Shown here: one piece after another, positions 8,690 to 22,810 of the stretch | Layout of the letters: each line of letters opens with the position of its first letter | Numbering within the stretch: position 1 is the first letter of the stretch | Origin: Promethearchaeia archaeon | GTDB lineage: Archaea; Asgardarchaeota; Lokiarchaeia; Sigyniarchaeales; SOKP01 | Direction of reading: 5' to 3' | NCBI GenBank assembly: GCA_046497275.1 | Contig: JAWOFX010000001.1 | Location: forward strand, 1-32,000 | Length of the DNA: 32,000 nt | Notes under the pieces: model-generated | Database searches by the model: none | What the model saw: only the letters and a program-made list of their open reading frames with translations | What the model was told of the DNA's origin: nothing | Position numbers and translations under genes: made by a program

Positions 8690-10117
8690 TTATATTAAAT
8701 CTAGTTTTAACATTTTCTCTTCAGCCATTTTATTCATCCTTTTTGAGGCTTCTAAATTCTCGGTTGATTCTCCTGAAATTCTTAAATATGGACTGGTCCC
8801 AGAACGTCTTATTAAAATCCAACCATCATTATAATCAATCCTTACTCCATCCCTCTTATTAATATTCTTAATTTCTTTTCCTTCAGAATTAAGAATCTCT
8901 TTCATTTCATCGATAATTTTATTGTTTATTTCTTCAGTAAAGGGGATGTCTTCCTTTAATTTGAAGGCGTCACGATAATAAGGATACTCTGGAATGTCAC
9001 TAAGTAATTTTCGTAAACTCATATTTGAGTCACTAATCATTTTTAAAACATTAGCGATTGTAAATATTGAATCTGGTCCAAGATGCGATTCAGGCCATAT
9101 ATAAGTTCCCGACGTTTCTCCACCTAAAAATCCCCCTTGCTCTTCTAATGCTTGAGCAACCTTAATATCTCCAACTTCAGTTCTAATTACCTCACAACCT
9201 AAAGGATTTAAAACGTCTTCTATTAGACTTGAGGAATTAATAGGTGTAGCAACTTTCATATTCTCATTTGATATTTGATCTTTATTTCTCTTCAAATAAT
9301 CAACTGCCATTAATGTTAAGAGACGAATTGGATCTACTATTGTTCCATTTTCGTCAAGAAATATTACTCGATCAGCATCACCGTCAAGAGCAATTCCAAT
9401 ATCATCCGTATCTGATGTTCTAAGAAATTTAGCTATTTGAACTAAATTTTCTTTACTTGGTTCAGAATTGCGACCTGGAAATTTTCCATCCATTTGAGCA
9501 TTAATAGTCATTAAATTTACATCATATTCACTTAATAATTGTGGAACAATATTACATCCTGCTCCATTTCCAGGATCAACTATAGCATGTAATTTACTTC
9601 CATTGAATTTTATTTGATGGGTAATTTGTGCAATATGTGCATCATTTATATCATTTATATGCGATACAGTCCCTACTCCATCCCATTCTATATTAAGAAA
9701 AGCTTTATCAGTATAGATCTTTTCAATTTCTTCTTCCTGTTCTTCAATATATCCCATTCCTGTGGGATTCCAGAATTTTAGACCAATATATTCAGGTGTA
9801 TTATGTGAGGCAGTGATAACAACTCCACAATCTGCACCCAAATAACGTAGAGACATTGCTAAGGTGGGTGTGGTGACAATTCCTAATGTTTTAACAATAC
9901 ACCCAGTACTAACGAGGCCTGATATAAATGCATATTCAATTGGTAAGGCACTCGTTCTTATATCTTTTCCGATTACAACAGTGGCGTCTCCATTCAAATA
10001 GGTTCCTAGAGCTAACCCAACTTCTAAAGCCATCTGAGGAGTTAACATAACATCTGTGTTGTCATAATTGCTAAAAATTCTCCTAATACCGCTTGTACCA
10101 AAAATTGTTCTTGACAT
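8690..10117 (-). CDS. glmM: Phosphoglucosamine mutase / phosphohexomutase
   Basis: IFGTSGIR, ITASHNT (catalytic Ser loop), DGDADR (metal loop), GGETSG, IRRSGTSP; clustered with glmS. Confidence 0.85.
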   Translation of the reverse strand: MSRTIFGTSGIRRIFSNYDNTDVMLTPQMALEVGLALGTYLNGDATVVIGKDIRTSALPIEYAFISGLVSTGCIVKTLGIVTTPTLAMSLRYLGADCGVVITASHNTPEYIGLKFWNPTGMGYIEEQEEEIEKIYTDKAFLNIEWDGVGTVSHINDINDAHIAQITHQIKFNGSKLHAIVDPGNGAGCNIVPQLLSEYDVNLMTINAQMDGKFPGRNSEPSKENLVQIAKFLRTSDTDDIGIALDGDADRVIFLDENGTIVDPIRLLTLMAVDYLKRNKDQISNENMKVATPINSSSLIEDVLNPLGCEVIRTEVGDIKVAQALEEQGGFLGGETSGTYIWPESHLGPDSIFTIANVLKMISDSNMSLRKLLSDIPEYPYYRDAFKLKEDIPFTEEINNKIIDEMKEILNSEGKEIKNINKRDGVRIDYNDGWILIRRSGTSPYLRISGESTENLEASKRMNKMAEEKMLKLDLI

Positions 10118-10486
10118 TATTGTCTTCCTTTTAATTTAATAATAATATTTGATATTTTTAGTAATATTAAAAAACTATTTAATTTAAATTTTTAAGTTCT
10201 TGATTTGAGAACTCTTAAAAGTATCTAAGATTGATTTTAACAATTTTAATTGTTGATTATCTAATATATTATAGGATTAAGGCAGGATTATGAGTTTCAA
10301 TTTAAACTTGCATAGATTTGAAATCAAGATGTCCTAAAAACATGGGAGATTTTCAATACTTAAAAATTGGTTTGATTAGATAAAGGAAAATCTTAACTTT
10401 TAAAACAGTAAAATATTAAATTTTAAAATAATTCACTTATAAGAGAATATGCTTTTTATTAAAGAGTATGAAGTTGAAACTTAGCT

Positions 10487-11959
10487 ATGATTTTCCAAGG
10501 TTTATACAATATATTAGATCTATACTTAAATGAAAGTGGAATATTTTATCAAAATGTAGACCAATATATTAAAAAAAATATAGATGATATTCCATTCGAT
10601 ATGAAGGATATAGATGAATCTTTAGAATTTATTCTAGAAAATTTAAAAGATCAACTAATTGAATTGGGTTTTTCTAAGGTAGAAATAGAAAATAAATTCT
10701 CTGACCCATTTCTTACTTTCGAGGAAATAGAGAAAAATAAGATAAGATCTGCCTTTGATTTATATAAAGAGAAAATAGCTCCGATATTTTATGAAATTTT
10801 GTTGGAAAAAATTGTTGATTATCTTGTTAATTCTGAAGTTGCTCCACTTATGTTGAATCTAAAATCCCAGGGTTTATTACCTCTTGAATTTATAATGGAA
10901 CTTAGAAAATTAAAAACAAAATTGGAGAATAATCCTGAAAAGATGGAAAATCTAAAAAAATATGTTAATATTAAAAATAAGCTCATACAAAAATTTAGGC
11001 AGAATAAGTGTGAAATTGAAAGGTTAGAAGATATCAGAGACCCAGGAGATAAGCTTCAATTAGTTTATATGATTTATAGAATTATTAATTTTTTTCATTT
11101 AGAGAGATTATTTGATTTTTCGCATATAGAAATTTACTTAGAAAATAATATAGATGAATGGCTTACTTCAGTTCCATTAATTACTTTAAAAAACCCAGAT
11201 ATTTACTTCTGCGGTCTTTATTTAGCAACTAATTTGGGAGTTGAAATTGATAAAGAAGAAGTAAAACGCTTCTTATTAGAGTTATACAATGAGTTTATCG
11301 ATGAATTTGACGCACCAATTATAGAAGCGACTGATCAGATTTATTATTTTTACAAATCCATTAAAATGATTAATTTGGATCTTTACGAAGAAGAAATTGA
11401 AAATTTAATGAGAGCTGATTCTTCTTTTTTCGAAAAAGATTACTTAAGAAGTTTAGAAACTTCACAACTCGTAGTTATTTTAAAATTATATAAATTATTA
11501 AGATTTTATGAAAAAATTGACAATTTAAAGATTAAAGCGATTTTAGATGAGATAAATAAACGAATTACACCAGAGGGAATTCTTCAATATAGAGATGGCA
11601 TAATATCATCTGAGGCATCCTATTATGTATTATTTAATGCATATATGAGAGATGAATTAGAATACCTTAAGAATTTTAAAATTTTAAATAGTGTTGTTGA
11701 GAGAATTTATAGGAATCTAGAAATTATCGATTTTTGTAGGAATACTAATTTTGATTTAGTGAGTGAAATTTTTTATTCTTGTGAAAGCTTAAAACTCTTT
11801 AATTGTATTGAAACAAAAGAAATGATATTCCATTTAGCACGGTATCTTTTTCCTGAGGGGATTCTTGAGAATGGATTGTTTAAGAGGGGGATTGACAGAA
11901 AAGCAGCAAAGTTTCGTCATCTAAAAGTAAATAAGTTGACAGGGCAGACTATCTACTAA
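10487..11959 (+). CDS. Hypothetical all-alpha protein; C-terminal half weakly resembles alpha/alpha-toroid repeats
   Basis: 490-aa ORF with normal composition. Helical repeats ending in motifs such as SSEASYYVL, EATDQIYY and VSEIFYS. No catalytic motif recognised. Confidence 0.7.
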   Translation: MIFQGLYNILDLYLNESGIFYQNVDQYIKKNIDDIPFDMKDIDESLEFILENLKDQLIELGFSKVEIENKFSDPFLTFEEIEKNKIRSAFDLYKEKIAPIFYEILLEKIVDYLVNSEVAPLMLNLKSQGLLPLEFIMELRKLKTKLENNPEKMENLKKYVNIKNKLIQKFRQNKCEIERLEDIRDPGDKLQLVYMIYRIINFFHLERLFDFSHIEIYLENNIDEWLTSVPLITLKNPDIYFCGLYLATNLGVEIDKEEVKRFLLELYNEFIDEFDAPIIEATDQIYYFYKSIKMINLDLYEEEIENLMRADSSFFEKDYLRSLETSQLVVILKLYKLLRFYEKIDNLKIKAILDEINKRITPEGILQYRDGIISSEASYYVLFNAYMRDELEYLKNFKILNSVVERIYRNLEIIDFCRNTNFDLVSEIFYSCESLKLFNCIETKEMIFHLARYLFPEGILENGLFKRGIDRKAAKFRHLKVNKLTGQTIY

Positions 11960-12072
11960 ATCGTATTAGTTTTTCTTCTAAATTTTTCCCGGTTATTAAA
12001 TTCTATAAACAAAATCTTAATTTAATTAAAATAATTTTATAAATCACTTAAATTGAAAGAAGATGTGGTATA

Positions 12073-13563
12073 GTGAAGTTTGAAGATTTTGAACTAATTT
12101 ATAAAGAGAATCGGGCTGAGATCAAAAATAAAGAAGAGATTCTAAAAGATTTAAAAGAAAAGATTGGAAAGAAAAATGTTTCAACTAATGAAATAGATCG
12201 AATGGCATACACCAGAGATTCATCGCTTATTTCATTAAATTGGACCATAGAAGGAAAAATTGCGGGACTACCTGATATTATTACATGGCCAGAAAATTCG
12301 AATCAAATTAGTGAAATATTAAAAATAGCAAATAGAGAAAAAATTCCTGTAGTTCCTTTTGCTGAAGGTTCTGGGGTTGTTGGAGGAGCGATTCCCATTA
12401 GAGGTGGAATAATAATCGATATGAAAAGATTAAATAAAATTATTGAAATAAATGATAAAAATCTATCTGTAACTGTTCAAACGGGAATGAATGGTATGAA
12501 TTTAGAGAGATATTTAAACTCTAAGGGATATACGGGAGGACATATCCCCCAGTCATTATATACATCATCAGTAGGGGGGTGGATCGCTCATAAAGCAGCA
12601 GGACAATTCTCTACTAAATATGGTAAAATCGAGGATATTATTTTAGGCATGCAAGTTATTTTATCAACTGGAGAGATTATAAATTTTGATCCTATAGCGA
12701 GATCCGCAACGGGTCCTCAACTTGATAAATATTTTATTGGTAGTGAAGGTACTTTAGGAATCGTTACGCAGGCGACCCTTAAAATTTGGCCCTATCCAGA
12801 AAAGAGAACCCTTATTTCATATGTTTTTCCAAAAATAGAGGATGCTTTAGACGCAGTCCGTTTAACTTTACGAGAGAATGTTTATCCTGCTGTAGTGAGA
12901 ATTTATGACGCTGATGAAACAGCAAGACATTTTAAACATATAGAAAAAGCCACAGATAAAGTGATGACCGTTTTTGTTTGCGAAGGTAATAAAGAATTAG
13001 TTGATTTAGAAGAAAAAATTACACGGGAAAAATGTAACGAACGATCTGGTGTGGATTGTGGAGAAGAACCAGTAGAACATTGGTTTGAAACACGATTCAA
13101 AGTAACTGAAACTTCTATGTTTCCACCATATAAAATCGTTGCTGATACCATTGAAGTCTCAATAATGTGGGATAAAGCTTCTGAATTATATCATTCTGTA
13201 ATTGGATCCACAAGTAAGGTGGAAGGTAATTTATTAATTACTGCTCATGTCTCTCATTTTTATCCAAATGGAGCTGGTTTTTACTTTACTTTTGGAGGTG
13301 TTCCCGGTAAAGGAAAATCTGAATTTGATTTCTATAAAGAATGTTGGGATGCTACAATTAAAGCAGTTTTGGATTCTGGTGGTTCTATTGCACATCATCA
13401 TGGAATAGGAGTCAATCGTTCTCACTGGATGGAAAGGGAATGGGATAATGGGTATGAAGTAATGAAAGAGTTTAAGAAAGTTCTTGATCCAAATAACATT
13501 CTTAATCCAGGAAAAATATATGAAAAAACATGGAAAAAATCAACAGATGGAGGTGGTGATTAA
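12073..13563 (+). CDS. FAD-linked oxidoreductase, alkyldihydroxyacetonephosphate synthase (AGPS)-like, VAO/PCMH family
   Basis: GHIPQSLYTSSVGGWIA..AAGQFSTKYGKIEDI, GSEGTLGIVT, PAVVRIYD, HVSHFYPNGAGFYFTF, AHHHGIG, DPNNILNPGK. GTG start. Confidence 0.9.
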   Translation: MKFEDFELIYKENRAEIKNKEEILKDLKEKIGKKNVSTNEIDRMAYTRDSSLISLNWTIEGKIAGLPDIITWPENSNQISEILKIANREKIPVVPFAEGSGVVGGAIPIRGGIIIDMKRLNKIIEINDKNLSVTVQTGMNGMNLERYLNSKGYTGGHIPQSLYTSSVGGWIAHKAAGQFSTKYGKIEDIILGMQVILSTGEIINFDPIARSATGPQLDKYFIGSEGTLGIVTQATLKIWPYPEKRTLISYVFPKIEDALDAVRLTLRENVYPAVVRIYDADETARHFKHIEKATDKVMTVFVCEGNKELVDLEEKITREKCNERSGVDCGEEPVEHWFETRFKVTETSMFPPYKIVADTIEVSIMWDKASELYHSVIGSTSKVEGNLLITAHVSHFYPNGAGFYFTFGGVPGKGKSEFDFYKECWDATIKAVLDSGGSIAHHHGIGVNRSHWMEREWDNGYEVMKEFKKVLDPNNILNPGKIYEKTWKKSTDGGGD

Positions 13564-13565
13564 AA

Positions 13566-14921
13566 ATGGGGATATTTGATACTTTAAAAAAATATAAATG
13601 GATGCTTCCACTAATTCAAGACGCTGAAAGAAATGTGAGACGTAAGTTATTAAAAAATGTAAGAAAGAAAAAAGAAAATTTTTATCCCGAAGGCGAGTTT
13701 CATGCTGATATTAAGAATCTGATAAATTGCATGCTTTGCCCTAATATGTGTCGTTTTGATTGTGGAGTATTACAAGCTTCGGAAAATGAAGCACTATCTC
13801 CGGCTTATAAATCAAGAATAGGTTACTTTCTGACAACAAATAAAATAGATCCCTCTGATCCAAAAAATAAAGAATTTGTTGATTTGATGTACAAATGTTC
13901 AAATGAAGAAAATTGTAAAATATGGTGTCCATTTGAATTTTCCGTTGTATCTCTGCTTGAGACGGTAAGAGATGATCTTAATGATAAAGGATTAATGCCC
14001 GAATATTGTAAAAAACAAATCAAAAAACTCCAAGATACAGGCACTATTGAGGATTATAATATTTTTAAAACCTATAAGGAAAAAGGTATCGAAAATATTG
14101 AAACGGAAGGAGATGATGATGTTTTTTATTATATTGGGTGCCAAACTATGAAGTTTCCGGAAGTTGTAAAGGCGAACATAGAGTTTCTAAAGAAAGCAGG
14201 GATAAAATTCTCAACAAATTTAGATCAGAGAGTGTGCTGTGGGGCTCCAGCTCTTAACATTAGAGATTTTGAAACTAGTAAAAATCTTGCAGAAAATAAT
14301 CTTGACCTCATTAAAAAAAGCGGTGCAGAAATTGTTGTTTCTGACTGTCCCGGATGCGTGAATTCACTCAAAAATCGATATCAAAAATTTGGCATTGGAA
14401 TTGAAATTGAAAAACAAAAACAAGGAGAGAATGAAGAAGAAGCTGAGGAGAAAACTGAAAAAGTGATTAAAAGTTATTTTGAGGAGGGACCCAAGATAAT
14501 TCATATCGTAGAATATATAAAAATATTAGTTGAAGAGGGCAAGTTAACGTTTGAAGAACTTCCAGAGAAATATCAGAAAGTCACAATTCACGATCCTTGT
14601 CTTTTAGCGAGAAATTTAAATGATATCACGTCCATTAGAACAATTTTGGAACATATTCCTAACTTAGAAATTGTGGAACCAATTTATACTAAGGATTACA
14701 CACACTGCTGTGGATGGAGTGGTACGGTTCATTGGGCAGATAAAGAGATTTCTATAAAAGAAGCGGAGAATAGAATAGACGAGCTAAAAGAGACTGGTGC
14801 AAAAATTATAGTTACCGCTTGTCCAACTTGTGAACTCGGCTTGGCTTATGGCATTAAGGATGAGGATAAAAAAGAGATTGAAATAAAAGATCTATCCGAA
14901 TTGATTAGCAAAGCAATTTAA
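13566..14921 (+). CDS. Fe-S oxidoreductase with two CCG domains (GlpC/GlcF/HdrD-like)
   Basis: CMLCPNMCRFDC, degenerate CSNEENCKIWCP, YIGC, CCGAP, DCPGC, HDPC, CCGW, ACPTC. Lies 2 nt after the flavoprotein stop, with SD GGAGGTGG. Confidence 0.9.
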   Translation: MGIFDTLKKYKWMLPLIQDAERNVRRKLLKNVRKKKENFYPEGEFHADIKNLINCMLCPNMCRFDCGVLQASENEALSPAYKSRIGYFLTTNKIDPSDPKNKEFVDLMYKCSNEENCKIWCPFEFSVVSLLETVRDDLNDKGLMPEYCKKQIKKLQDTGTIEDYNIFKTYKEKGIENIETEGDDDVFYYIGCQTMKFPEVVKANIEFLKKAGIKFSTNLDQRVCCGAPALNIRDFETSKNLAENNLDLIKKSGAEIVVSDCPGCVNSLKNRYQKFGIGIEIEKQKQGENEEEAEEKTEKVIKSYFEEGPKIIHIVEYIKILVEEGKLTFEELPEKYQKVTIHDPCLLARNLNDITSIRTILEHIPNLEIVEPIYTKDYTHCCGWSGTVHWADKEISIKEAENRIDELKETGAKIIVTACPTCELGLAYGIKDEDKKEIEIKDLSELISKAI

Positions 14922-15104
14922 TTCTTAATTTTTTTATAATACTTCCTTTTTAATTTAATTTTATTAGAAAATAATCCAAATTAATTCAACTCTTTCCAAA
15001 TTGGTTAATTTTATAAATTCTTAAACCATTTTTTTGAATGATAAATTTTATTATAATATATAACTTCTTTCAAGTATTATACAATTCAATTAATTTAAGA
15101 ATGC

Positions 15105-16658
15105 TTGGCGAAAATGGAACAAAAAATATTAATATTAGATATTGGAACTACCAATATAAAAGCTCTCTTATTTAATAAAAAAGGAGAGATTGTTGGTGAA
15201 GCTCGTCGTCGTCCAGATTATATTATGAAAGAAAAAGGGCAAGTAGAGCAAGATCCCAATCAAATTTGGCAGTATAGTAAAGAAGCTATCGAAGAAGTCA
15301 TCGATAAGAATAATTTGAGCGCCTCAGATATAAAGTGTATGGGGATTACCACTCAAAGAGCATCTTTTTGTATATGGGACAGAAGAAATGGAAAATTATA
15401 TTCTAATATAATTACTTGGCAAGATAAAAGAGCTGCAAAATATGCTCAAGAAATGTCAAATAGTTTCTTTTTTAAATTCTTGAGAGGGTTTGCAAAAGTT
15501 GCACATATGTTGACTAAAAGTACAAAAATGCTTACAGCTTCAATGTTACAATTCAATTCAGATTACGCATCTATAAGAACTTCTTATTTTCTAAAAAATA
15601 ATCCCAAATTGAATGAATTAATTCAAGATCCAAAAACTACTATTAGTTGGGGTACAATTGATACGTGGGTACTATGGAATCTTACAGAAGGAAGAGTTTT
15701 TGCAACTGATTACTCCAACTGCTCCTCAACAGGTATGTTGGATCCTTTTACATTAGATTGGAATTCTATTGTTATCGATAAATTAAAAATACCTCTATAC
15801 ATTTTACCAGAAATAAAAGATACTAATGGTGATTTTGGAGAGACTAAACTCTTTGGCAGTGGCGAGATCCCTATTCGAAGTGTAGTGGCAGATCAACAAG
15901 CATCTCTATTCGGTCAATGTTGCTTTGATTATGGAGATATGAAAGTCACTAATGGGACGGGTTCGTTTGTAGATTTAAATACTGGAGATGAACCTTTCGC
16001 ATCTAAAAGGAAATTATATCCCTTAGTGGCATGGAGATTAAATGGAGAGGTTTCTTATATCTTGGAAGGGCTAAGTCATAACTCAGGAAACATAATAGAT
16101 TGGATAAAAGAGGAACTCGAGCTATATGATGATCCGAGCGAAACTGAAGAGATGGCAAAAAGCGTTGAATCAACTGAAGGAGTATTTTTCCTACCAACAT
16201 TCACTAGTGGACTTTCATTCCCCTACTGGGATCCTTCGGCAAGAGGGAACATTTTTGGAATAAGCTTAAAAACTAAGAAAGAACATATAATAAGAGCTGT
16301 TTTAAATGGTATTTGCTTTAGAATAAAAGATTTTGTTGAAGGTATTATTGCAGATACAGGTATATCAGTCGATAGAATAAAAGCTGATGGAGGTGTGTCC
16401 CAAAATACCTATGTTCTCCAATTCCTAGCAGATATACTTGATATGGAAGTAGAACATTCTCAGAATCCAGAGACAACAGCTCTTGGAGCTGCTTTTATCG
16501 CAGGATTAGCAACTAACTTCTGGAATTCTAGAGAAGAGTTAAGGGAAATCAGAAAAATCGATAAAATTTATGAACCACGAATGAGTAAGGAGAGAAGAGA
16601 AAAACTTTATAACAATTGGAAAGATATCATTCGGCGTTCCCTCAATTATAATTTCTAA
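15105..16658 (+). CDS. FGGY-family glycerol kinase-like protein, GK5-type
   Basis: LDIGTT, EQDP, GITTQRAS, WQD, GTIDTW, TDYSNCSSTG, ADQQASLFG, GTGSF, ADGG, ETTALGAAFIAG. Likely true start is ATG at 15114. Confidence 0.9.
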   Translation: MAKMEQKILILDIGTTNIKALLFNKKGEIVGEARRRPDYIMKEKGQVEQDPNQIWQYSKEAIEEVIDKNNLSASDIKCMGITTQRASFCIWDRRNGKLYSNIITWQDKRAAKYAQEMSNSFFFKFLRGFAKVAHMLTKSTKMLTASMLQFNSDYASIRTSYFLKNNPKLNELIQDPKTTISWGTIDTWVLWNLTEGRVFATDYSNCSSTGMLDPFTLDWNSIVIDKLKIPLYILPEIKDTNGDFGETKLFGSGEIPIRSVVADQQASLFGQCCFDYGDMKVTNGTGSFVDLNTGDEPFASKRKLYPLVAWRLNGEVSYILEGLSHNSGNIIDWIKEELELYDDPSETEEMAKSVESTEGVFFLPTFTSGLSFPYWDPSARGNIFGISLKTKKEHIIRAVLNGICFRIKDFVEGIIADTGISVDRIKADGGVSQNTYVLQFLADILDMEVEHSQNPETTALGAAFIAGLATNFWNSREELREIRKIDKIYEPRMSKERREKLYNNWKDIIRRSLNYNF

Positions 16659-16841
16659 AAATCACTTTTTCCTAATTTTTTTATTATTTAATAATAACAC
16701 TTCCAAAATTTTGGATTTTAATATTATTGAATGGTTAGTTTTTTATTGGTATTAAAAGGTTAATTAAAAAATCACAAAATATTTTTTAAATACCATATTT
16801 CAAGAATTATAAGATAATATACATGCTGCAATTCAAAAACG

Positions 16842-17669
16842 ATGCCTTACTTCAAAAATCAAGAGGGTTACAATCTATATTATGAAGAATTCAACCCTCA
16901 ATCGAAACGGTGTACAGTAATATTACTCCACGGATTTGCCTCATCTGTATCTTTCTTTAAAGAACAAATAAAAATATTAAAGGAATATTATCGTATCATT
17001 TGTTTTGATGCTTTAGGGCATGGGCGCAGCGATCATACCAAAGAGATTAATTTATCTGGCAATATACGACATCAAATTATTCGAGATCTTGAAGATTTAT
17101 TAGAATATCTGGGGATTAAAGGTCCTTATGGAATTATAGGACATTCATTGGTAGGGGGAATGATTGCTCAACTGATATGTCAAAAACATATGGATGATGT
17201 AAAGTTTCTTATTCTCCTCAATTCAGGTTACATTAACACAGATAATGTTATTCGAAATATTTTCTACAATCTCCTTCCTTATATGGTGAGAATGAATTTT
17301 TTAGATGTTGTAAATAATTCAATAGGAAACATTTTAGATAAAACAACACCTTATATAGTTCAAGCATTATCAAACTCCTTGTATAATGTGAAAATGTCTA
17401 AAGAAAAATTATTAATGCATATAGAAGATCAGATTTTTGGAATGATAAATGAGATTAAGGAATATGATCCCTCATATATCAAATGTCCGACCCTTATTAT
17501 CGGAGGTAGGTTAGATAATTTTGCACCAGAACAAATGTCAGAGAGTTTAGCGGAAAGAATTCCAAATTCGAGATTAGAAATAATTGATATGGCTGGGCAT
17601 TTTGGACCTGCCCAGAGAGAAGAAACTTATAATAAAATAATTTGCGATTTTATTCGATCCATTAAGTAA
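16842..17669 (+). CDS. Alpha/beta-fold hydrolase
   Basis: LLHGF oxyanion motif, FDALGHGRS, GHSLVGG (Ser), GRLD (Asp), AGH (His). Confidence 0.88.
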   Translation: MPYFKNQEGYNLYYEEFNPQSKRCTVILLHGFASSVSFFKEQIKILKEYYRIICFDALGHGRSDHTKEINLSGNIRHQIIRDLEDLLEYLGIKGPYGIIGHSLVGGMIAQLICQKHMDDVKFLILLNSGYINTDNVIRNIFYNLLPYMVRMNFLDVVNNSIGNILDKTTPYIVQALSNSLYNVKMSKEKLLMHIEDQIFGMINEIKEYDPSYIKCPTLIIGGRLDNFAPEQMSESLAERIPNSRLEIIDMAGHFGPAQREETYNKIICDFIRSIK

Positions 17670-17711
17670 GATCATAACTATTTATGGTTTAAATTATATT
17701 TATAGATCATT

Positions 17712-18083
17712 ATGACTTCAGAAACTCATAATGATTCAAATACAGAATTTTATTTTTTTAAGGATGAAGTTAAAAAATTTGTAGAAGAACGAGGATGGGC
17801 AAAGTATCATACTCCCAAAAATGTGATTCAAGCTATGGGGGTAGAATTGGCGGAATTATCGGAACTCTTTCTATTTAAGGATTTCAAAAAAAAAGAGATA
17901 ATAGAAAATCCAGAATTATTTGCTAATATTAAAGAAGAAGTAGCTGATATTTTCATTTATTTAGTAAGTTTTATTAATAGACTTGATTTTGATCTTACTT
18001 CAATATTTATAAAGAAAATGCTGAAAAATGAGAAAAAATATCCTATAAATGAGTTCAATGATGGAAAATATTACAAAAAATAA
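17712..18083 (+). CDS. MazG-like nucleotide pyrophosphohydrolase (DCTPP1-like)
   Basis: FVEERGWAKYHTPKN, ELAELSELF, EEVADIFIY, KNEKKYP. Confidence 0.9.
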   Translation: MTSETHNDSNTEFYFFKDEVKKFVEERGWAKYHTPKNVIQAMGVELAELSELFLFKDFKKKEIIENPELFANIKEEVADIFIYLVSFINRLDFDLTSIFIKKMLKNEKKYPINEFNDGKYYKK

Positions 18084-18179
18084 ATCGGAGAGGTTTCTTC
18101 TTAGAGAATAGTAAATAATCATTCATTTAATAGACTATTATTAAAAGATTTTTAATTAATAATACTATTATTTTAAATT

Positions 18180-19157
18180 ATGGTAGCGGATAATATTGAT
18201 GAAATTATCAAAAAACAATTTCATTACACTTTAAATGAGACACATTTTTCTGACTTGGGTGAATTATACAAAGGAAAAGTAAGAGATAACTATATTTTGG
18301 ATGATAAAAGAATTATTATTGCCTCTGATCGTCTTTCCGCATTCGATCGCGTAATTACCACCATCCCTTTCAAGGGACAGATGCTTAACCAAGTATCATC
18401 ATTTTGGTTTGAAAAAACGAATAATTTAGTTAAAAATCATCTTATAGAAGTTCCAGACCCGAATGTCTCAGTGGTCCACCAATGCGAAACAATTCCAGTT
18501 GAAATCATTGTTAGAGCTTATTTAACTGGCACTGCATGGCGAAATTATAAAAAGGGGAAAGCAACTTCTGGTTATATTCTTCCTGAAGGGTTAAGAAAAA
18601 ATCAAAAATTAGATACGATTCTTATAACTCCATCTACAAAAGAAGAATCTGGGCATGATATCTATTTACCAGCGCAAGAAATAATTGAAAGGGGAATGGT
18701 AGATAAAGAAATTTACGACCAGATGGAAGATGCCGCTATGAAGTTGTTTAAATTTGGTCAAGAATATTGTAGCAAAAATGGCTTAATCCTAGTTGATACA
18801 AAATATGAATTTGGAATTAAGGATGGAGAACTTATGGTAATTGATGAAATTCACACTCAAGATTCTTCACGATTTTGGATTAAAGATACATATGAAAAAA
18901 GATTTGAAAATGAAAAGGAACCTGAAATTTTAGATAAAGAAATTTTCCGAGGGTGGCTTATGGAAACTTACCCAGAAATATTTCCAAATATTGCACCCGA
19001 TCAAGAAATACCCCCTATATCTGACGATATAAAGATTGAACTAGCTAAAAGGTATATGAGGAGCTATGAAAGAATAACTGGTATGCAATTTACTCCCAAA
19101 ATTGGGGACGTGGAATCAAGAATCGAATCAAATCTCAAAAAAAATAAATATCTATAA
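18180..19157 (+). CDS. purC: SAICAR synthetase (long type)
   Basis: YKGKVRD, SDRLSAFD, KGQMLNQVSSFWF, TPSTK, LVDTKYEFG, DSSRFW, DKEIFR. Confidence 0.95.
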   Translation: MVADNIDEIIKKQFHYTLNETHFSDLGELYKGKVRDNYILDDKRIIIASDRLSAFDRVITTIPFKGQMLNQVSSFWFEKTNNLVKNHLIEVPDPNVSVVHQCETIPVEIIVRAYLTGTAWRNYKKGKATSGYILPEGLRKNQKLDTILITPSTKEESGHDIYLPAQEIIERGMVDKEIYDQMEDAAMKLFKFGQEYCSKNGLILVDTKYEFGIKDGELMVIDEIHTQDSSRFWIKDTYEKRFENEKEPEILDKEIFRGWLMETYPEIFPNIAPDQEIPPISDDIKIELAKRYMRSYERITGMQFTPKIGDVESRIESNLKKNKYL

Positions 19158-19208
19158 AGCCTTAAAAAACGAAAAATTATATTAGTCATTAAATTGTAAT
19201 TTTTAATA

Positions 19209-19424
19209 ATGATTGAATTAATTCTCTTGATTCTTGCTGTCGTATTTACAGTTCTTGGTTTTTATTATTTTATAAATAATTTCAGGAAGATTAGCAAAAA
19301 TAAAGTAGAATCTACTGAAGAGAATGAATTCCCTAGAGACATTAAAAGAAGTTTTGGCTTTCTTCTAGGAGGATTTCTTTTTATCACATTTTTAAGTATC
19401 ATCATTGTATTAACACGCTTTTGA
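19209..19424 (+). CDS. Small two-TM membrane protein of unknown function
   Basis: 71 aa; two hydrophobic segments separated by a charged loop; co-oriented between purC and purS. Confidence 0.6.
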   Translation: MIELILLILAVVFTVLGFYYFINNFRKISKNKVESTEENEFPRDIKRSFGFLLGGFLFITFLSIIIVLTRF

Positions 19425-19567
19425 AATAAGAATTTCATGATATAAACTTATTTAAGATTGATGGTTTTAATAAGGAAGAGACTTCTTATTTAGGCTTTTT
19501 AGATGAGTAGCCATTATTTTTAAGTTAATAAGAATTATTTTAAGTATAAACACTTTTTTTTCATAAA

Positions 19568-19846
19568 ATGGGATTAGAATTAAAAGATTTTGTGGTCGAA
19601 GTTGTATTAACTAACAAGGAAAAAGCCAGAGATCCAACGGGTGAGACAATTCAACGAGATCTCTTAGCTAAAAAGGGATATTCTGCGATTTCGAATGTAA
19701 GAAGCGGACAATATTTAAAAATATCAATTAAAGCAAAAGATAGCGATGATGCGAAACAAATTATAATTAATATGTGTAATGAATTAAGAATTTTTAACCC
19801 TGTAACCCAAGATCTTCACATTATAAATGTAACTGAACAAAATTAA
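19568..19846 (+). CDS. purS: Phosphoribosylformylglycinamidine synthase subunit PurS
   Basis: DPTGETI, VRSGQY, LRIFNPV; directly upstream of purQ and purL. Confidence 0.9.
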   Translation: MGLELKDFVVEVVLTNKEKARDPTGETIQRDLLAKKGYSAISNVRSGQYLKISIKAKDSDDAKQIIINMCNELRIFNPVTQDLHIINVTEQN

Positions 19847-19852
19847 AATAAA

Positions 19853-20563
19853 ATGAGTTTAAAAGTTGCAGTTATTCAATTTCCAGGGTCTAATTGTGAT
19901 TTAGATACACTCCATGTATTGAATAACGTAATGAATTTAGATGCCGAATTAATATGGCATAATGAGTTTAAGGGTGCTAGGTTTGATGCTGCAGTCTTAC
20001 CAGGAGGGTTTTCTTTTGGAGATTATCTAAGATCTGGTATTATCGCTGCTCACAGCCCAGCTATTGATGAAGCTAAGGAAATGTTAAAAGAGGATAAACC
20101 TATACTTGGAATTTGTAATGGATTTCAAATTCTTACAGAGGCACAGATGCTCCCGGGAGCGTTATTGCAAAATGAATCATTGAAATTTATTTGTAAATGG
20201 ATTAATATTAAAGTGGAGAATATCCAAACCGCATTTACAAATCAAATGGGTAAAGGAAAAGTTTTAGATATCCCAATAGCTCACGGAGAGGGAAGATATT
20301 TTACAGATAACATTAAGGAACTTAGAGACAATGACCAAATCATTTTTAGATATACCAATCACGATGGAATTATCGATCAGGATTCAAATCCTAATGGTTC
20401 ACTGGATAGTATAGCTGGAGTATGTAATTTAGAAAGAAATTGTCTTGGACTAATGCCACATCCAGAACGAGCTTCCGAAGAAATATTAAGTCCTAATAAG
20501 ACCACACACGGGAGGTTATTTTTTCATTCAATGATTAGTTTCATAAAAAAAGGAGGGATCTGA
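19853..20563 (+). CDS. purQ: FGAM synthase glutaminase subunit PurQ
   Basis: [44 protein letters not shown]. Confidence 0.97.
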
Positions 20564-22810
20564 GTGACTAAAGTAAATGTGGGAGAAGATGAGTTAGACG
20601 TTGATTTAACAGAGGATGAAATAGATTATATAAAAAACACGTTAGAACATCCACCGTCTATTACAGAATTAGGTATGTTTGATGTCATGTGGTCAGAACA
20701 TTGTTCCTATAAATCCTCAAGACCCAAATTGAAATTATTTGAAGATGCTGAAAAAAATTATGATTATGTCCTTGCTGGACCTGGACAGGATGCTGGAGTA
20801 ATAGATATTGGGGATGGATATTGTTTAGCATTTCGGATCGAATCACATAATCACCCCTCAGCAATAGAACCTTATCATGGAGCAGCTACGGGAATCGGAG
20901 GGATTATCCGGGATATTTTATGCATGGGAGTTCGCCCGATTGCTTTATTAGATCCTCTTCGTTTTGGTCCACTTAAAAATGATCCTCATTCTCAATGGCT
21001 ATTTAAATACGTTGTTAAGGGAATTGCTGACTATGGTAATTGCACAGGTATCCCAACGATTGGAGGTGAAGTTGAATTTGATAAAAGTTTCAGAAACAAT
21101 TGCCTGGTTAATGTAGCATGTATTGGTTTAGGGACTGTAGAAGATTTTAAGCATGCCCCAAGCAGGGCATATAATCCAGGAGATTATATTATTTTAATGG
21201 GGGGGTCCACTGGGAGAGATGGTATCCATGGTGTTACTTTTGCTTCAAGAACGTTAACTGAACAATCAGAAGAAGATCGACCTGCTGTTCAAATTGGGGA
21301 TCCTTTTACTAAAAAATTAATTATAGAGGCAACTTTAGAAGCAATTAAATCCGGGTACGTGAGAGGTTTGAAGGATTTAGGAGGGGGAGGTTTATCATGT
21401 GCGTTAAGCGAATTAACTGGAGATGGAGGAACTGGGGCTAAAGTTGATTTAGAAAAAATATTTATCCGCGAGCCCGGAATGAATTCTTTTGAAATTATGC
21501 TTTCAGAATCACAAGAAAGAATGGCATTCATTGTAAAACCAGAAGGACTTAATGAAATTTTAAGAATATTTAGAAAGTATGAAATGGCGCACGAAGTTAT
21601 TGGTAGAACAGATGATTCCCAGATATTGAAAGTATATGAGAATGATAATTTAGTTGTGAGTTTACCAGCTGTCGCCCTTTCAGAATCACCCGTTAAAGAG
21701 AGAGAAGAAAAGCGTCCAGAATATCTTGACAAATTACTTTCCCAAAAAACCCCCGAAACTAATTTATCTCCTGAAGAAATTCTCTATACATTAATTTCTT
21801 CTGAAAATATTTGTAATAAAGAATGGATTTATCGTCAATATGATCACGAAGTTGGAATTAGATCGGTTGTAAAATGTGGTAGGGGGGATTCAGGAGTATT
21901 AAGGATCAAAGAAACTAATAAATTCATCGCTACCAGTGTGGGCTCAAATTCAAAGCACTGCTTTCTCGATCCATATAATGGTGCTAAAGGAAATCTAGTT
22001 GAAATTTGTGGAAATATTATAGCTAATGGAGCAAAACCGATGGCAATGGTGAATTGCTGTAATTTCGGCAATCCTGAAAAACCAGAATCTTATTGGTATT
22101 TCTTTAAATCAGTACAAGGGATGGCCGATTTTTGCAGAAATCTTAGAATACCGGTGGTGGGGGGAAATGTATCCTTTTATAATGAAGATGAGGTAACGAA
22201 AACAGCCATAAAACCCACTCCACAAATTATGATCGTTGGATTAATTGAAGGAGAAGAGAATATTATTACTATGCCTTTTAAGAAATCTGGAAATGAGATT
22301 TTATTAATCGGAGAAATAAAAGCAGAATTGGGAGGATCTGAATATCATTCAATTATCCATAATATTCAGGGCGGAAACCCTCCAAAAGTAGATGAAAACC
22401 GAGTAAAAAAAATATGGGGCTTAATTGGTGAATTATATAAAAGAAAAATAATTGAAGCAAATCATGATATTAACAAAGGGGGGTTTATAATAACTATTGC
22501 TGAGATGTGCTTTGATAATCAATATGGTGCGGATTTGGATTTAGGTGAATTACTTAACGGAGAACTTTCAGAAGAGGAATTATTATATAGTGAGAGCGTG
22601 GGAAGATTTGTGATTGAGACAAATCCTAACAATACCGAGTCAATAAAAAAATTAGCCGATAAATTTAATGTTCCAGTGTATCATATTGGTAATATTTCGT
22701 CCGAACCTCAAATACACATTAATGGACTTAGCTCAGGAGAAATAATACTAGATGTTCTAAAAATGAAAAAATTGTATGATTCTACCATTCCAAATTTAAT
22801 GGAAATTTAA
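20564..22810 (+). CDS. purL: FGAM synthase subunit PurL
   Basis: WSEHCSYKSS, ESHNHPS, TGRDGIHG, DLGGGG, SESQERM, QYDHEV, NFGNPE, GGNVSFYN. GTG start abuts the purQ TGA. Confidence 0.97.
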   Translation: MTKVNVGEDELDVDLTEDEIDYIKNTLEHPPSITELGMFDVMWSEHCSYKSSRPKLKLFEDAEKNYDYVLAGPGQDAGVIDIGDGYCLAFRIESHNHPSAIEPYHGAATGIGGIIRDILCMGVRPIALLDPLRFGPLKNDPHSQWLFKYVVKGIADYGNCTGIPTIGGEVEFDKSFRNNCLVNVACIGLGTVEDFKHAPSRAYNPGDYIILMGGSTGRDGIHGVTFASRTLTEQSEEDRPAVQIGDPFTKKLIIEATLEAIKSGYVRGLKDLGGGGLSCALSELTGDGGTGAKVDLEKIFIREPGMNSFEIMLSESQERMAFIVKPEGLNEILRIFRKYEMAHEVIGRTDDSQILKVYENDNLVVSLPAVALSESPVKEREEKRPEYLDKLLSQKTPETNLSPEEILYTLISSENICNKEWIYRQYDHEVGIRSVVKCGRGDSGVLRIKETNKFIATSVGSNSKHCFLDPYNGAKGNLVEICGNIIANGAKPMAMVNCCNFGNPEKPESYWYFFKSVQGMADFCRNLRIPVVGGNVSFYNEDEVTKTAIKPTPQIMIVGLIEGEENIITMPFKKSGNEILLIGEIKAELGGSEYHSIIHNIQGGNPPKVDENRVKKIWGLIGELYKRKIIEANHDINKGGFIITIAEMCFDNQYGADLDLGELLNGELSEEELLYSESVGRFVIETNPNNTESIKKLADKFNVPVYHIGNISSEPQIHINGLSSGEIILDVLKMKKLYDSTIPNLMEI

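Follow-up and report, generated by a model that had tools for sequence, protein, structure and literature searches.

In Pseudomonas aeruginosa the PA3026-PA3023 operon encodes an FAD oxidoreductase (PA3026), a GlpD homologue (PA3025), an FGGY kinase (PA3024) and a YegS lipid kinase (PA3023), and is strongly induced, together with a phospholipase C, by the AraC-type regulator GliR (PA3027) (PMC8151288). Deletion of PA3026-PA3024 left growth on glycerol normal and gave no phenotype in Biolog plates, and the route from glycerol to alkyl-dihydroxyacetone phosphate (alkyl-DHAP) suggested by the authors was a proposal only (PMC8151288). No functional study of such a set of genes other than the GliR paper was found in the literature. 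Here we describe an archaeal counterpart from a 32,000-nucleotide (nt) stretch of Promethearchaeia DNA (hereafter the window; assembly GCA_046497275.1, contig JAWOFX010000001.1, positions 1 to 32,000), in which an AGPS-like flavoprotein (FLAV), a soluble iron-sulfur (Fe-S) protein (CCG), a GK5-type FGGY kinase and an alpha/beta hydrolase (HYD) are encoded by four plus-strand open reading frames (ORFs) of the same orientation, the first two of them 2 nt apart, exactly as in the initial annotation of this DNA (Table 1). Judged from the published description, the P. aeruginosa operon has equivalent components, namely an AGPS-like FAD oxidoreductase, a GlpD homologue, an FGGY kinase and a YegS/DAGK kinase. 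It differs from the window, which has a CCG partner, a GK5-type kinase with an amphipathic insertion, an anaerobic Asgard host, and a glycerol-3-phosphate dehydrogenase (G3PDH) homologue that is of the GlpAB(C)/FngABC type and not adjacent. FLAV-CCG is probably the redox enzyme of a module that combines a kinase, a G3PDH-like protein and an AGPS-like flavoprotein, and neither an AGPS nor a substitute for GlpABC.

Canonical glycerol operons offer a second comparison. The ordinary layout is GlpABC or FngABC with a kinase, as in the GlpK-GlpABC and GlpK-FngABC operons of E. coli, Haloferax and Pyrococcus, and FngABC is an electron-bifurcating glycerol-3-phosphate (G3P) dehydrogenase; many FngA homologues have sugar kinases but no glycerol genes nearby, and those FngA/GlpA homologues that lie next to a sugar kinase are likely to act on other polyol phosphates (Schut et al., PMC13689815). 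As in those operons, a kinase of the GlpK lineage and a GlpA/FngA-type dehydrogenase belong together with the genes described here, and in other archaea both stand in one operon with FLAV-CCG. The canonical operons, however, lack an AGPS-like flavoprotein, whereas the window kinase has Ala for Glu84 and GlpAB is encoded on another contig. GlcDEF, Dld-II and YdiJ resemble FLAV-CCG in having a FAD_binding_4/FAD-oxidase_C flavoprotein that adjoins, or is fused with, a protein carrying two 4Fe-4S motifs and CCG domains, and some relatives of FLAV carry a second, GlcE-like flavoprotein copy, as GlcDEF does. In contrast to these enzymes, the motifs of FLAV are of the AGPS type rather than GEHG, and in the genome it is accompanied by G3PDH homologues and kinases, not by genes for lactate or glycolate.

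The closest solved structure to FLAV is AGPS (also ADPS; EC 2.5.1.26; PDB 2UUU, 4BBY), with a phmmer E-value of 5e-60 for 2UUU as against 9e-41 for the D-lactate dehydrogenase LDHD. The AlphaFold2 (AF2) model of FLAV (pLDDT 92.5) likewise matched guinea-pig AGPS (5AE3/4BBY) best, with a TM score of 0.86 at 27% identity compared with 0.80 for LDHD, so that the AGPS-like character proposed from the letters alone holds for both sequence and fold. Besides the PCMH/VAO fold, AGPS-type residues are retained: Y404 aligns with Tyr578 of the guinea-pig and Tyr508 of the Dictyostelium enzyme, which serves as the base, H441-H443 with the His615-617 loop, and R276 with Arg419/Arg352, all named as catalytic in a review of the enzyme (PMC3509576). 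The family of FLAV was represented by the 150 nearest 50%-identity clusters from a library of 1.8 billion proteins, and R276, R341, Y397, Y404 and the HHH loop are present in nearly all of them. In FLAV, HHHG stands in place of the GEHG motif and Tyr404 in place of the second His of the His/His/Glu set, which together we take to be the metal site of LDHD and D2HGDH, and true GEHG-type proteins separate cleanly from the FLAV family. The AGPS alignment to FLAV begins only at about residue 92 of the Dictyostelium and 163 of the guinea-pig protein, and FLAV has 496 aa as against 584-658 for AGPS; FLAV therefore lacks the AGPS-only N-terminal domain, whose gate-keeping helix controls the fatty-chain channel (PMC3509576). 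FLAV also differs from AGPS in its coupling to an Fe-S subunit, in having Ser where Dictyostelium has Arg447, and in standing outside any context of fatty-acyl reductase (FAR) and GNPAT genes. Eukaryotic AGPS scores about 200 bits against FLAV, and scores above 280 bits are reached by more than 150 prokaryotic clusters (50% identity). By these scores FLAV is a member of a large prokaryotic sister group of AGPS without a special tie to eukaryotes, and a special link between Asgard and eukaryotic AGPS finds no support; a recent preprint derives the eukaryotic enzyme from Myxobacteria (10.1101/2025.10.10.681575). Orthologues of FLAV are named AGPS by JGI and K00803 by KEGG.

Variation within the family of FLAV was also recorded. 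In 25 of the 60 other Asgard orthologues (among loci L073-L105) Gln takes the place of the central His in the HHH loop (H-Q-H), and D-H-H or E-H-H occurs in some of the bacterial relatives; such variants would mark sub-specificities, provided that the loop is catalytic. Relatives of 750-1000 aa were at first taken as FLAV-CCG fusions, but hmmsearch identified 35 of the 150 clusters (e.g. P0125, P0131-P0133) as tandem, GlcD-GlcE-like fusions of an AGPS-type flavoprotein with a second, degenerate FAD-binding copy; in one example (L108:8001-10844; contigs L108/L109) a CCG gene comes next and the gene of a DAGK-type kinase adjoins. The window's own genome (3.85 Mb; assembly completeness 98.9%) encodes seven further VAO-family paralogues, in none of which are AGPS-type motifs found. 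At least six of these directly precede a CCG Fe-S gene (contigs C172, C156, C167, C148, C92 and C59), an unusually large set of two-subunit VAO/CCG dehydrogenases for one genome of that size.

The CCG gene adjoins FLAV in 60 of the 61 Asgard loci analysed, and hmmsearch identified a single true FLAV-CCG fusion among the 150 clusters, in a Bacillota cluster (P0126). The CCG protein contains PF02754 in two stretches (1e-32) and a weak Fer4_8 match, its Cys motifs are visible in the sequence, and its best solved relative is HdrB (heterodisulfide reductase subunit B), which matches residues 185-440. No hydrophobic segment was found in it. CCG falls far below the GlpC equivalog cut-offs (77.6 against 278 for NF008369 and 43.8 against 280 for TIGR03379) and that of GlcF in NCBIfam. 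CCG is presumed to be the electron outlet of FLAV: a relay of four Fe-S clusters is sensible only in an enzyme with a net flow of electrons, and the AGPS reaction proceeds without net redox change (PMC3509576).

Conservation of this arrangement was surveyed by fetching approximately 19 kb around each of 60 Asgard FLAV orthologues and clustering their ORFs, which together with the window gave 61 loci; orthologues of FLAV occur in 107 of the 201 genomes sampled from the phylum. An FGGY kinase was encoded within 8 kb of FLAV in 50 of the 61 loci, being XylB/LsrK-like (KINB) in 42 and GK5-like in eight, and a GlpA-like gene, mostly as part of a full GlpABC, within the same distance in 28. Three arrangements were seen. 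In the window's own family the order is U490 (an all-helical protein, see below), FLAV, CCG, kinase, HYD, a MazG-like gene and pur genes, the kinase slot being occupied by KINB (487 aa, 22-26% identical to the window kinase) in 13 genomes and by a GK5-like kinase in four; the FLAV tree within this family is a polytomy, which favours neither the GK5-like nor the XylB-like kinase as ancestral at the slot. Most other Asgard families have KINB > GlpA > GlpB > GlpC > FLAV > CCG, and some have FLAV > CCG > FngA > FngB > FngC > GK5-like kinase. The window's genome itself encodes GlpA and GlpB orthologues on contig C59 and a KINB orthologue on C156. No GlpC orthologue was seen beside GlpAB on C59, where GlpB and GlpA, both on the minus strand, are divergent from a VAO flavoprotein of non-AGPS type (19397-20884) and a 510-aa CCG protein (20906-22438), the whole spanning C59:15446-22438; a second, different flavoprotein/CCG pair thus lies near a G3P dehydrogenase. 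In one further Asgard family (f7; L081-L105, e.g. L090:11558-13238), a radical-SAM protein (377 aa) and a 199-aa protein of no known family are retained downstream of FLAV-CCG in 19 loci, in most of which a 568-aa aldehyde dehydrogenase comes next; these three proteins may act in the same pathway in those lineages.

Outside the Asgard phylum, three of the four more distant GK5-like kinases end a tight, overlapping FLAV > CCG > FngA > FngB > FngC > kinase operon, in a member of the Thermoplasmatota, in Bathyarchaeia and in a CdvA-bearing archaeon; FLAV is not adjacent to a GK5-like kinase of Spirochaetales that is 59% identical to the window kinase. On Bacillota and other contigs FLAV, with or without CCG, stands beside GlpABC or FngABC. 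A scan of species-representative genomes gave 80 named loci, of which 68, from bacteria, had AGPS-type and nine had GEHG-type motifs. Within 5 kb, 38 of the AGPS-type loci had a GlpD/GlpA-like gene, 17 an FGGY kinase and 24 a DAGK_cat/YegS-type lipid kinase, and at least one of these was present in 49, whereas none of the nine GEHG-type (D-lactate-dehydrogenase-like) loci, taken as a control from the same scan, had a GlpA-like or kinase neighbour. The order glpD > FLAV > glpK-like was found in Acidimicrobiia, Binatia, Caulobacterales and Myxococcota, and a divergent GlpD-like gene with FLAV > DAGK in Mycobacterium (Rv2249c-Rv2252-type layout), Streptomyces, Nocardia and Rhodococcus. The FLAV-linked kinases and GlpD-like proteins score below the curated NCBIfam cut-offs. 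Clustering of bacterial neighbours, which was contaminated with antisense ORFs from high-GC genomes, brought up no other conserved partner.

The initial annotation had proposed an undescribed lipid module of flavoprotein, CCG protein, GK5-type kinase and hydrolase, and named a lack of conservation of the kinase and hydrolase beside the pair as grounds for giving it up. The link between flavoprotein, CCG and kinase is borne out in Asgard archaea, other archaea and bacteria, whereas membership of the hydrolase is not, and the module itself is already known as an uncharacterised bacterial operon; what is new is an archaeal, Fe-S-coupled variant with a GK5-type kinase. Of two models that came with that proposal, replacement of GlpK-GlpABC by the pair has to be given up, as the pair stands beside GlpABC or FngABC in most lineages and the genome keeps its own GlpA and GlpB. 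The other, salvage of alkyl- or acyl-glycerol, is a possible reading, and is preferred here in a generalised form.

The kinase aligns from end to end with bacterial glycerol kinases (3e-114 for S. aureus GlpK), scores below the GlpK cut-offs (474.6 against 498 for NF000756 and 461 against 590 for TIGR01311), and is the only GlpK-like kinase found in its genome. Its glycerol site departs from that of GlpK, which we take to consist of Arg83, Glu84, Trp103, Tyr135, Asp245 and Phe270 in E. coli numbering: QRET is replaced by QRAS, so that the equivalent of Glu84 is Ala, and the other five residues are present. A motif table of the FLAV-linked GlpK-like kinases gave QR[AGST][ST] for QRET in every case, and most of them lack the equivalent of Tyr135. 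Compared with bacterial GlpK, the window kinase contains an insertion of 26-36 aa at about residues 117-150, which holds the most amphipathic 18-mer of the protein (hydrophobic moment, muH, 0.65). The label GK5-type is upheld by annotation and by embedding: NCBI names its orthologues at 62-67% identity 'glycerol kinase 5', and its three nearest ESM-Atlas clusters (Spirochaetota, Chordata and Arthropoda; 0.98, with 220-229 of 256 features shared) are 'Glycerol kinase 5', so that the likeness to animal GK5 is one of names and embedding. The ORF as listed starts at a TTG, and the true start is probably the ATG at 15114 (residue 4), since homology to GlpK, the Atlas record and contigs from RNA libraries all begin there or just before. 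GK5 was also considered as the orphan alkylglycerol kinase of animals and dropped, since a preprint assigns that activity to ACAD10 (10.1101/2025.09.10.675409).

Taken together, these data suggest that the FLAV, CCG and GK5-type kinase genes of the window are the local copy of a module found throughout prokaryotes, consisting of a non-canonical kinase (a GlpK/GK5-like or XylB/LsrK-like FGGY protein or a DAGK-type lipid kinase), a homologue of the catalytic subunit of G3P dehydrogenase (GlpD, GlpABC or FngABC, here on C59) and the AGPS-like flavoprotein, with FLAV and CCG forming a soluble two-subunit FAD/Fe-S oxidoreductase. The kinase would phosphorylate a glycerol-like alcohol bearing a substituent on the C1 side, either O-linked (alkyl, acyl or glycosyl) or in the form of a longer polyol chain, and the G3PDH homologue would oxidise C2 to give a DHAP-type ketone. 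Such a ketone would suit FLAV because AGPS-type carbanion chemistry at C1 works on that class of substrate; the Tyr/His/Arg site would deprotonate C1 and take the ketone onto the flavin, and, as FLAV is wired to four Fe-S clusters, it would then turn over oxidatively, freeing the substituent, leaving the C3 phosphate for central metabolism and passing electrons through CCG to an acceptor. A C1-side substituent is suggested by the changes in the glycerol site of the kinases, the interchangeability of XylB-like and DAGK-type kinases, the sub-threshold GlpD-like proteins and the missing glycerol phenotype in P. aeruginosa. This specific route is advanced tentatively, at somewhat less than even odds.

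Several observations weigh against this view of the module. What the data show are the genes and their families, the retained residues, the recurrent gene association and presence in RNA libraries; every chemical step is our inference, from the sequence of reactions and the compound acted upon to the redox turnover and the electron acceptor. The equivalent of Dictyostelium Arg447, reported to be important for AGPS catalysis (PMC3509576), is S348 in FLAV, at a column that varies (K, P, R, A, E) and lies in a loop where the alignment is less certain. No hydrophobic segment was found in FLAV, and with the gating domain also absent a long lipid chain is not obviously accommodated. The lipid hints in the neighbourhood, namely a prenyltransferase-like fold in U490 and an ABHD6-like HYD, may be mere synteny. 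In the window no G3PDH homologue is adjacent, and transcription of the kinase seems to be driven from a separate promoter. The ordinary layout of glycerol operons, together with an Asgard GlpB that scores above its NCBIfam cut-off, leaves room for plain G3P as substrate. Finally, a CCG partner was present in only 11 of the 68 AGPS-type loci, for example in Clostridia, Spirochaetota and Thermoguttaceae, and in aerobic bacteria FLAV lacks one, so that net redox turnover may not extend to all members of the family.

A role in oxygen-independent cleavage or exchange of glyceryl ethers, including the isoprenoid glyceryl ethers of archaea, was considered and is regarded as doubtful. Here the GK5-type kinase would use its amphipathic insertion to phosphorylate a glycerol mono-ether, the GlpA/FngA homologue would oxidise C2 of the product to give alkyl-DHAP, which is achiral at C2, and FLAV with its Fe-S partner would release the chain oxidatively or transfer it to a new backbone. 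If this were true it would explain at the molecular level how ether lipids are turned over and recycled anaerobically in sediments and suggest an ancestral lipid-linked substrate for GK5, and the K00803 'AGPS' genes in reconstructions of deep ancestors would be catabolic or salvage dehydrogenases.

The main rival to a C1-substituted substrate, and one that we consider on the whole unlikely, is that FLAV-CCG acts as a second dehydrogenase for unsubstituted glycerol phosphate, oxidising either sn-glycerol-1-phosphate (sn-G1P), and so complementing the sn-G3P-specific GlpA, GlpD and FngA, or sn-G3P itself with a different electron acceptor, both routes ending at DHAP. sn-G1P makes up the backbone of archaeal lipids and is also the form present in the head groups of phosphatidylglycerol and lipoteichoic acid in bacteria. 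The constant co-occurrence of FLAV with a G3P dehydrogenase homologue is the pattern expected from a division of labour, and the sn-G1P option is attractive in that it explains co-occurrence with an sn-G3P enzyme. FLAV is soluble and without the lipid-gating domain, and the DHAP moiety that an AGPS-type site binds would here be the product (PMC3509576). A phospholipase C and a diacylglycerol-type kinase belong to the P. aeruginosa regulon; by our reasoning these, acting on phosphatidylglycerol, would yield glycerol-1-phosphate and diacylglycerol. Since oxidation of G3P is thermodynamically awkward in anaerobes, alternative acceptors are also plausible (PMC13689815). Left unexplained, however, are the loss of Glu84 and Tyr135 in linked kinases, or the use of XylB/LsrK-like ones, the linked GlpD-like proteins below cut-off, and the missing glycerol phenotype of the P. 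aeruginosa deletion (PMC8151288). With a phosphate arm replacing the carboxylate, sn-G3P and not sn-G1P would, as we see it, fit the D-2-hydroxyacid geometry of the superfamily. Moreover, we know of no enzyme of the FLAV fold that oxidises G1P or G3P.

Action on a keto-phosphate derived from some longer polyol, for instance a tetritol or pentitol, with no involvement of glycerol or lipid, would be a sub-case of the preferred explanation and seems improbable. The kinase would yield a polyol phosphate, the GlpA/FngA homologue a ketose phosphate, and FLAV would oxidise the next carbon. This would suit the prevalence of XylB/LsrK-like kinases in Asgard loci, the FngA homologues that have sugar kinases but lack neighbouring glycerol genes (PMC13689815), and a sugar transporter of the major facilitator superfamily encoded beside the GlpD-like gene in a mycobacterial locus, but GK5/GlpK-like and DAGK-type kinase partners point to a glycerol-sized or lipid acceptor, and neighbour clustering in Asgard and bacterial loci revealed no conserved isomerase, aldolase or transketolase-type genes near FLAV.

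It is still less probable that FLAV is a genuine alkyl-DHAP synthase, replacing an acyl chain by a fatty or isoprenoid alcohol and so producing a precursor of ether lipids, which would be the biosynthetic version of the salvage model. This would be in keeping with AGPS as best solved relative, with the retained Tyr, HHH loop and Arg419 equivalent, with the JGI and KEGG names, and with the route proposed by the authors of the P. aeruginosa study (PMC8151288). The Fe-S coupling in nearly every Asgard locus is, however, at odds with a non-redox reaction; the gating domain is absent and the Arg447 equivalent is not retained; and eukaryotic AGPS scores far under hundreds of prokaryotic relatives. 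No FAR or DHAP acyltransferase was found among the ten genes at 8690-22810 or in the f7-type cluster, whereas the proven AGPS of Myxococcus adjoins a FAR-GNPAT gene, and a survey devoted to the plasmalogen pathway did not find it in Archaea (10.1101/2025.10.10.681575). The Fe-S coupling, the absent gating domain and the lack of FAR/GNPAT neighbours thus make a true AGPS unlikely. Weakest of all is a standard dehydrogenase for D-lactate, glycolate or a D-2-hydroxyacid (GlcD/GlcF or Dld-II type) lying near a kinase by chance, for although it would have the same Pfam domains, TIGR00387 (glcD) is the top NCBIfam match of FLAV, at least six other VAO/CCG pairs occur in the genome and D-lactate could arise from DHAP by way of methylglyoxal, the glcD score is 221 bits against a cut-off of 568, and the motifs and the neighbourhood of the GEHG-type control loci speak against it, leaving it very little probability.

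If FLAV-CCG is the oxidoreductase of the module rather than an AGPS, the consequences extend beyond this locus. A very large prokaryotic family is annotated as AGPS (K00803), and Fe-S coupling, the absent gating domain and partnership with G3PDH homologues and kinases argue that it is not; the Asgard variant is the best evidence so far that such annotations hide an oxidoreductase. A LUCA (last universal common ancestor) reconstruction counts AGPS among its lipid enzymes as evidence for ether-lipid synthesis (PMC11383801), and that argument, like claims of 'AGPS in Asgard', is weakened. The module is carried by over half of the Asgard genomes sampled, by further archaeal phyla and by numerous bacterial ones, with Mycobacterium and Pseudomonas among the carriers, so that working out its reaction would close a considerable gap in what is understood of glycerol and glycerolipid metabolism. 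The CCG-coupled archaeal version provides the clearest evidence for net redox chemistry and narrows the hypotheses for the bacterial versions. Through the kinase clade, animal GK5, an enzyme with a poorly defined physiological substrate, is connected to a prokaryotic context that is conserved and testable.

Table 1. Features of the FLAV-CCG locus, in window coordinates.
Feature	Position	Strand	Basis or remarks
U490, all-helical protein, 490 aa	10487-11959	+	Upstream of FLAV only in the window's family
TATA-like box	12035-12044	+	About 25-30 nt upstream of RNA contig starts at 12064-12071
FLAV, AGPS-like VAO/PCMH flavoprotein, 496 aa	12073-13563	+	Pfam FAD_binding_4 and FAD-oxidase_C; R276, R341, H395, Y397, Y404, H441-H442-H443-G
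CCG, soluble Fe-S subunit of HdrB/HdrD/GlpC type, 451 aa	13566-14921	+	Pfam and NCBIfam; two 4Fe-4S motifs, two CCG domains
T-run after the CCG stop codon, possible archaeal terminator	14929-14935	+	Sequence
TATA-like stretch before the kinase	~15046-15062	+	Sequence
GK5-type FGGY kinase, non-canonical GlpK relative, 517-aa ORF	15105-16658	+	Pfam FGGY_N and FGGY_C; NCBIfam; PDB
HYD, alpha/beta hydrolase with GHSLVGG nucleophile elbow, 275 aa	16842-17669	+	Pfam and NCBIfam

In salt-lake metatranscriptomes of three studies, contigs with approximately 100% identity extend over FLAV, CCG and the kinase, and those of two studies span the FLAV/CCG junction, also at approximately 100% identity. RNA contigs begin at 12064-12071 and 15109-15125, just downstream of TATA-like boxes, with contig ends bearing adapter remnants at 12064 (run X6) and a contig starting at 12071 (run X4). 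These starts give a weak hint of a near-leaderless FLAV-CCG transcript and a separate one for the kinase, the RNA runs being kept as contigs, which are no proof of transcript ends and may include DNA carry-over; for the same reasons the uncovered parts (14769-15025 and 17082-17852) and differences in depth were not used as evidence. The 183-nt gaps before the kinase and before the hydrolase contain T-runs and TATA-like boxes, so the four genes need not be transcribed together in this genome. The distance from the CCG gene to the kinase gene is 10-50 nt in relatives.

The window has a G+C content of approximately 30%, and the best matches of FLAV, at up to 92% identity, are in Promethearchaeota/Lokiarchaeota metagenome-assembled genomes, from which the host is an Asgard archaeon, as had been thought likely before its origin was known. 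A phosphoglucomutase gene and U490 lie upstream of FLAV, and a MazG-like gene and purC/purQ/purL downstream of HYD. HYD, which shows a weak full-length likeness to the monoacylglycerol lipase ABHD6 and to esterases, and U490 are each found in 16 of the 61 Asgard loci, all within the window's own family, and in the Asgard and bacterial surveys the hydrolase adjoins the pair nowhere outside it. Within that family the purC/purQ and phosphoglucomutase neighbours are kept exactly as often as HYD; since these unrelated genes are equally conserved, the adjacency of HYD and U490 reflects synteny at the level of the family and is not evidence of shared function.

U490 matched no Pfam or NCBIfam family. 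Its AF2 model (pLDDT 77) forms an alpha/alpha toroid over approximately residues 155-490, and the best structural matches by VIA-align were seven beta subunits of protein geranylgeranyl- and farnesyl-transferases (Z 12.3-14.8; next family 10.4). A Foldseek search of the PDB gave no match, the likeness to prenyltransferase beta subunits coming from the exhaustive aligner only, and a Z of about 14 is within the range that helical proteins reach by arrangement alone. Judged from this model, U490 may be an Asgard-specific isoprenoid-binding protein. A paralogue of U490, 54% identical, is encoded at C172:22701-24176 of the same genome. The MazG-like/dUTPase_2-like protein (123 aa; 17712-18083, plus strand) is encoded 42 nt past the hydrolase and is kept with it across the family.

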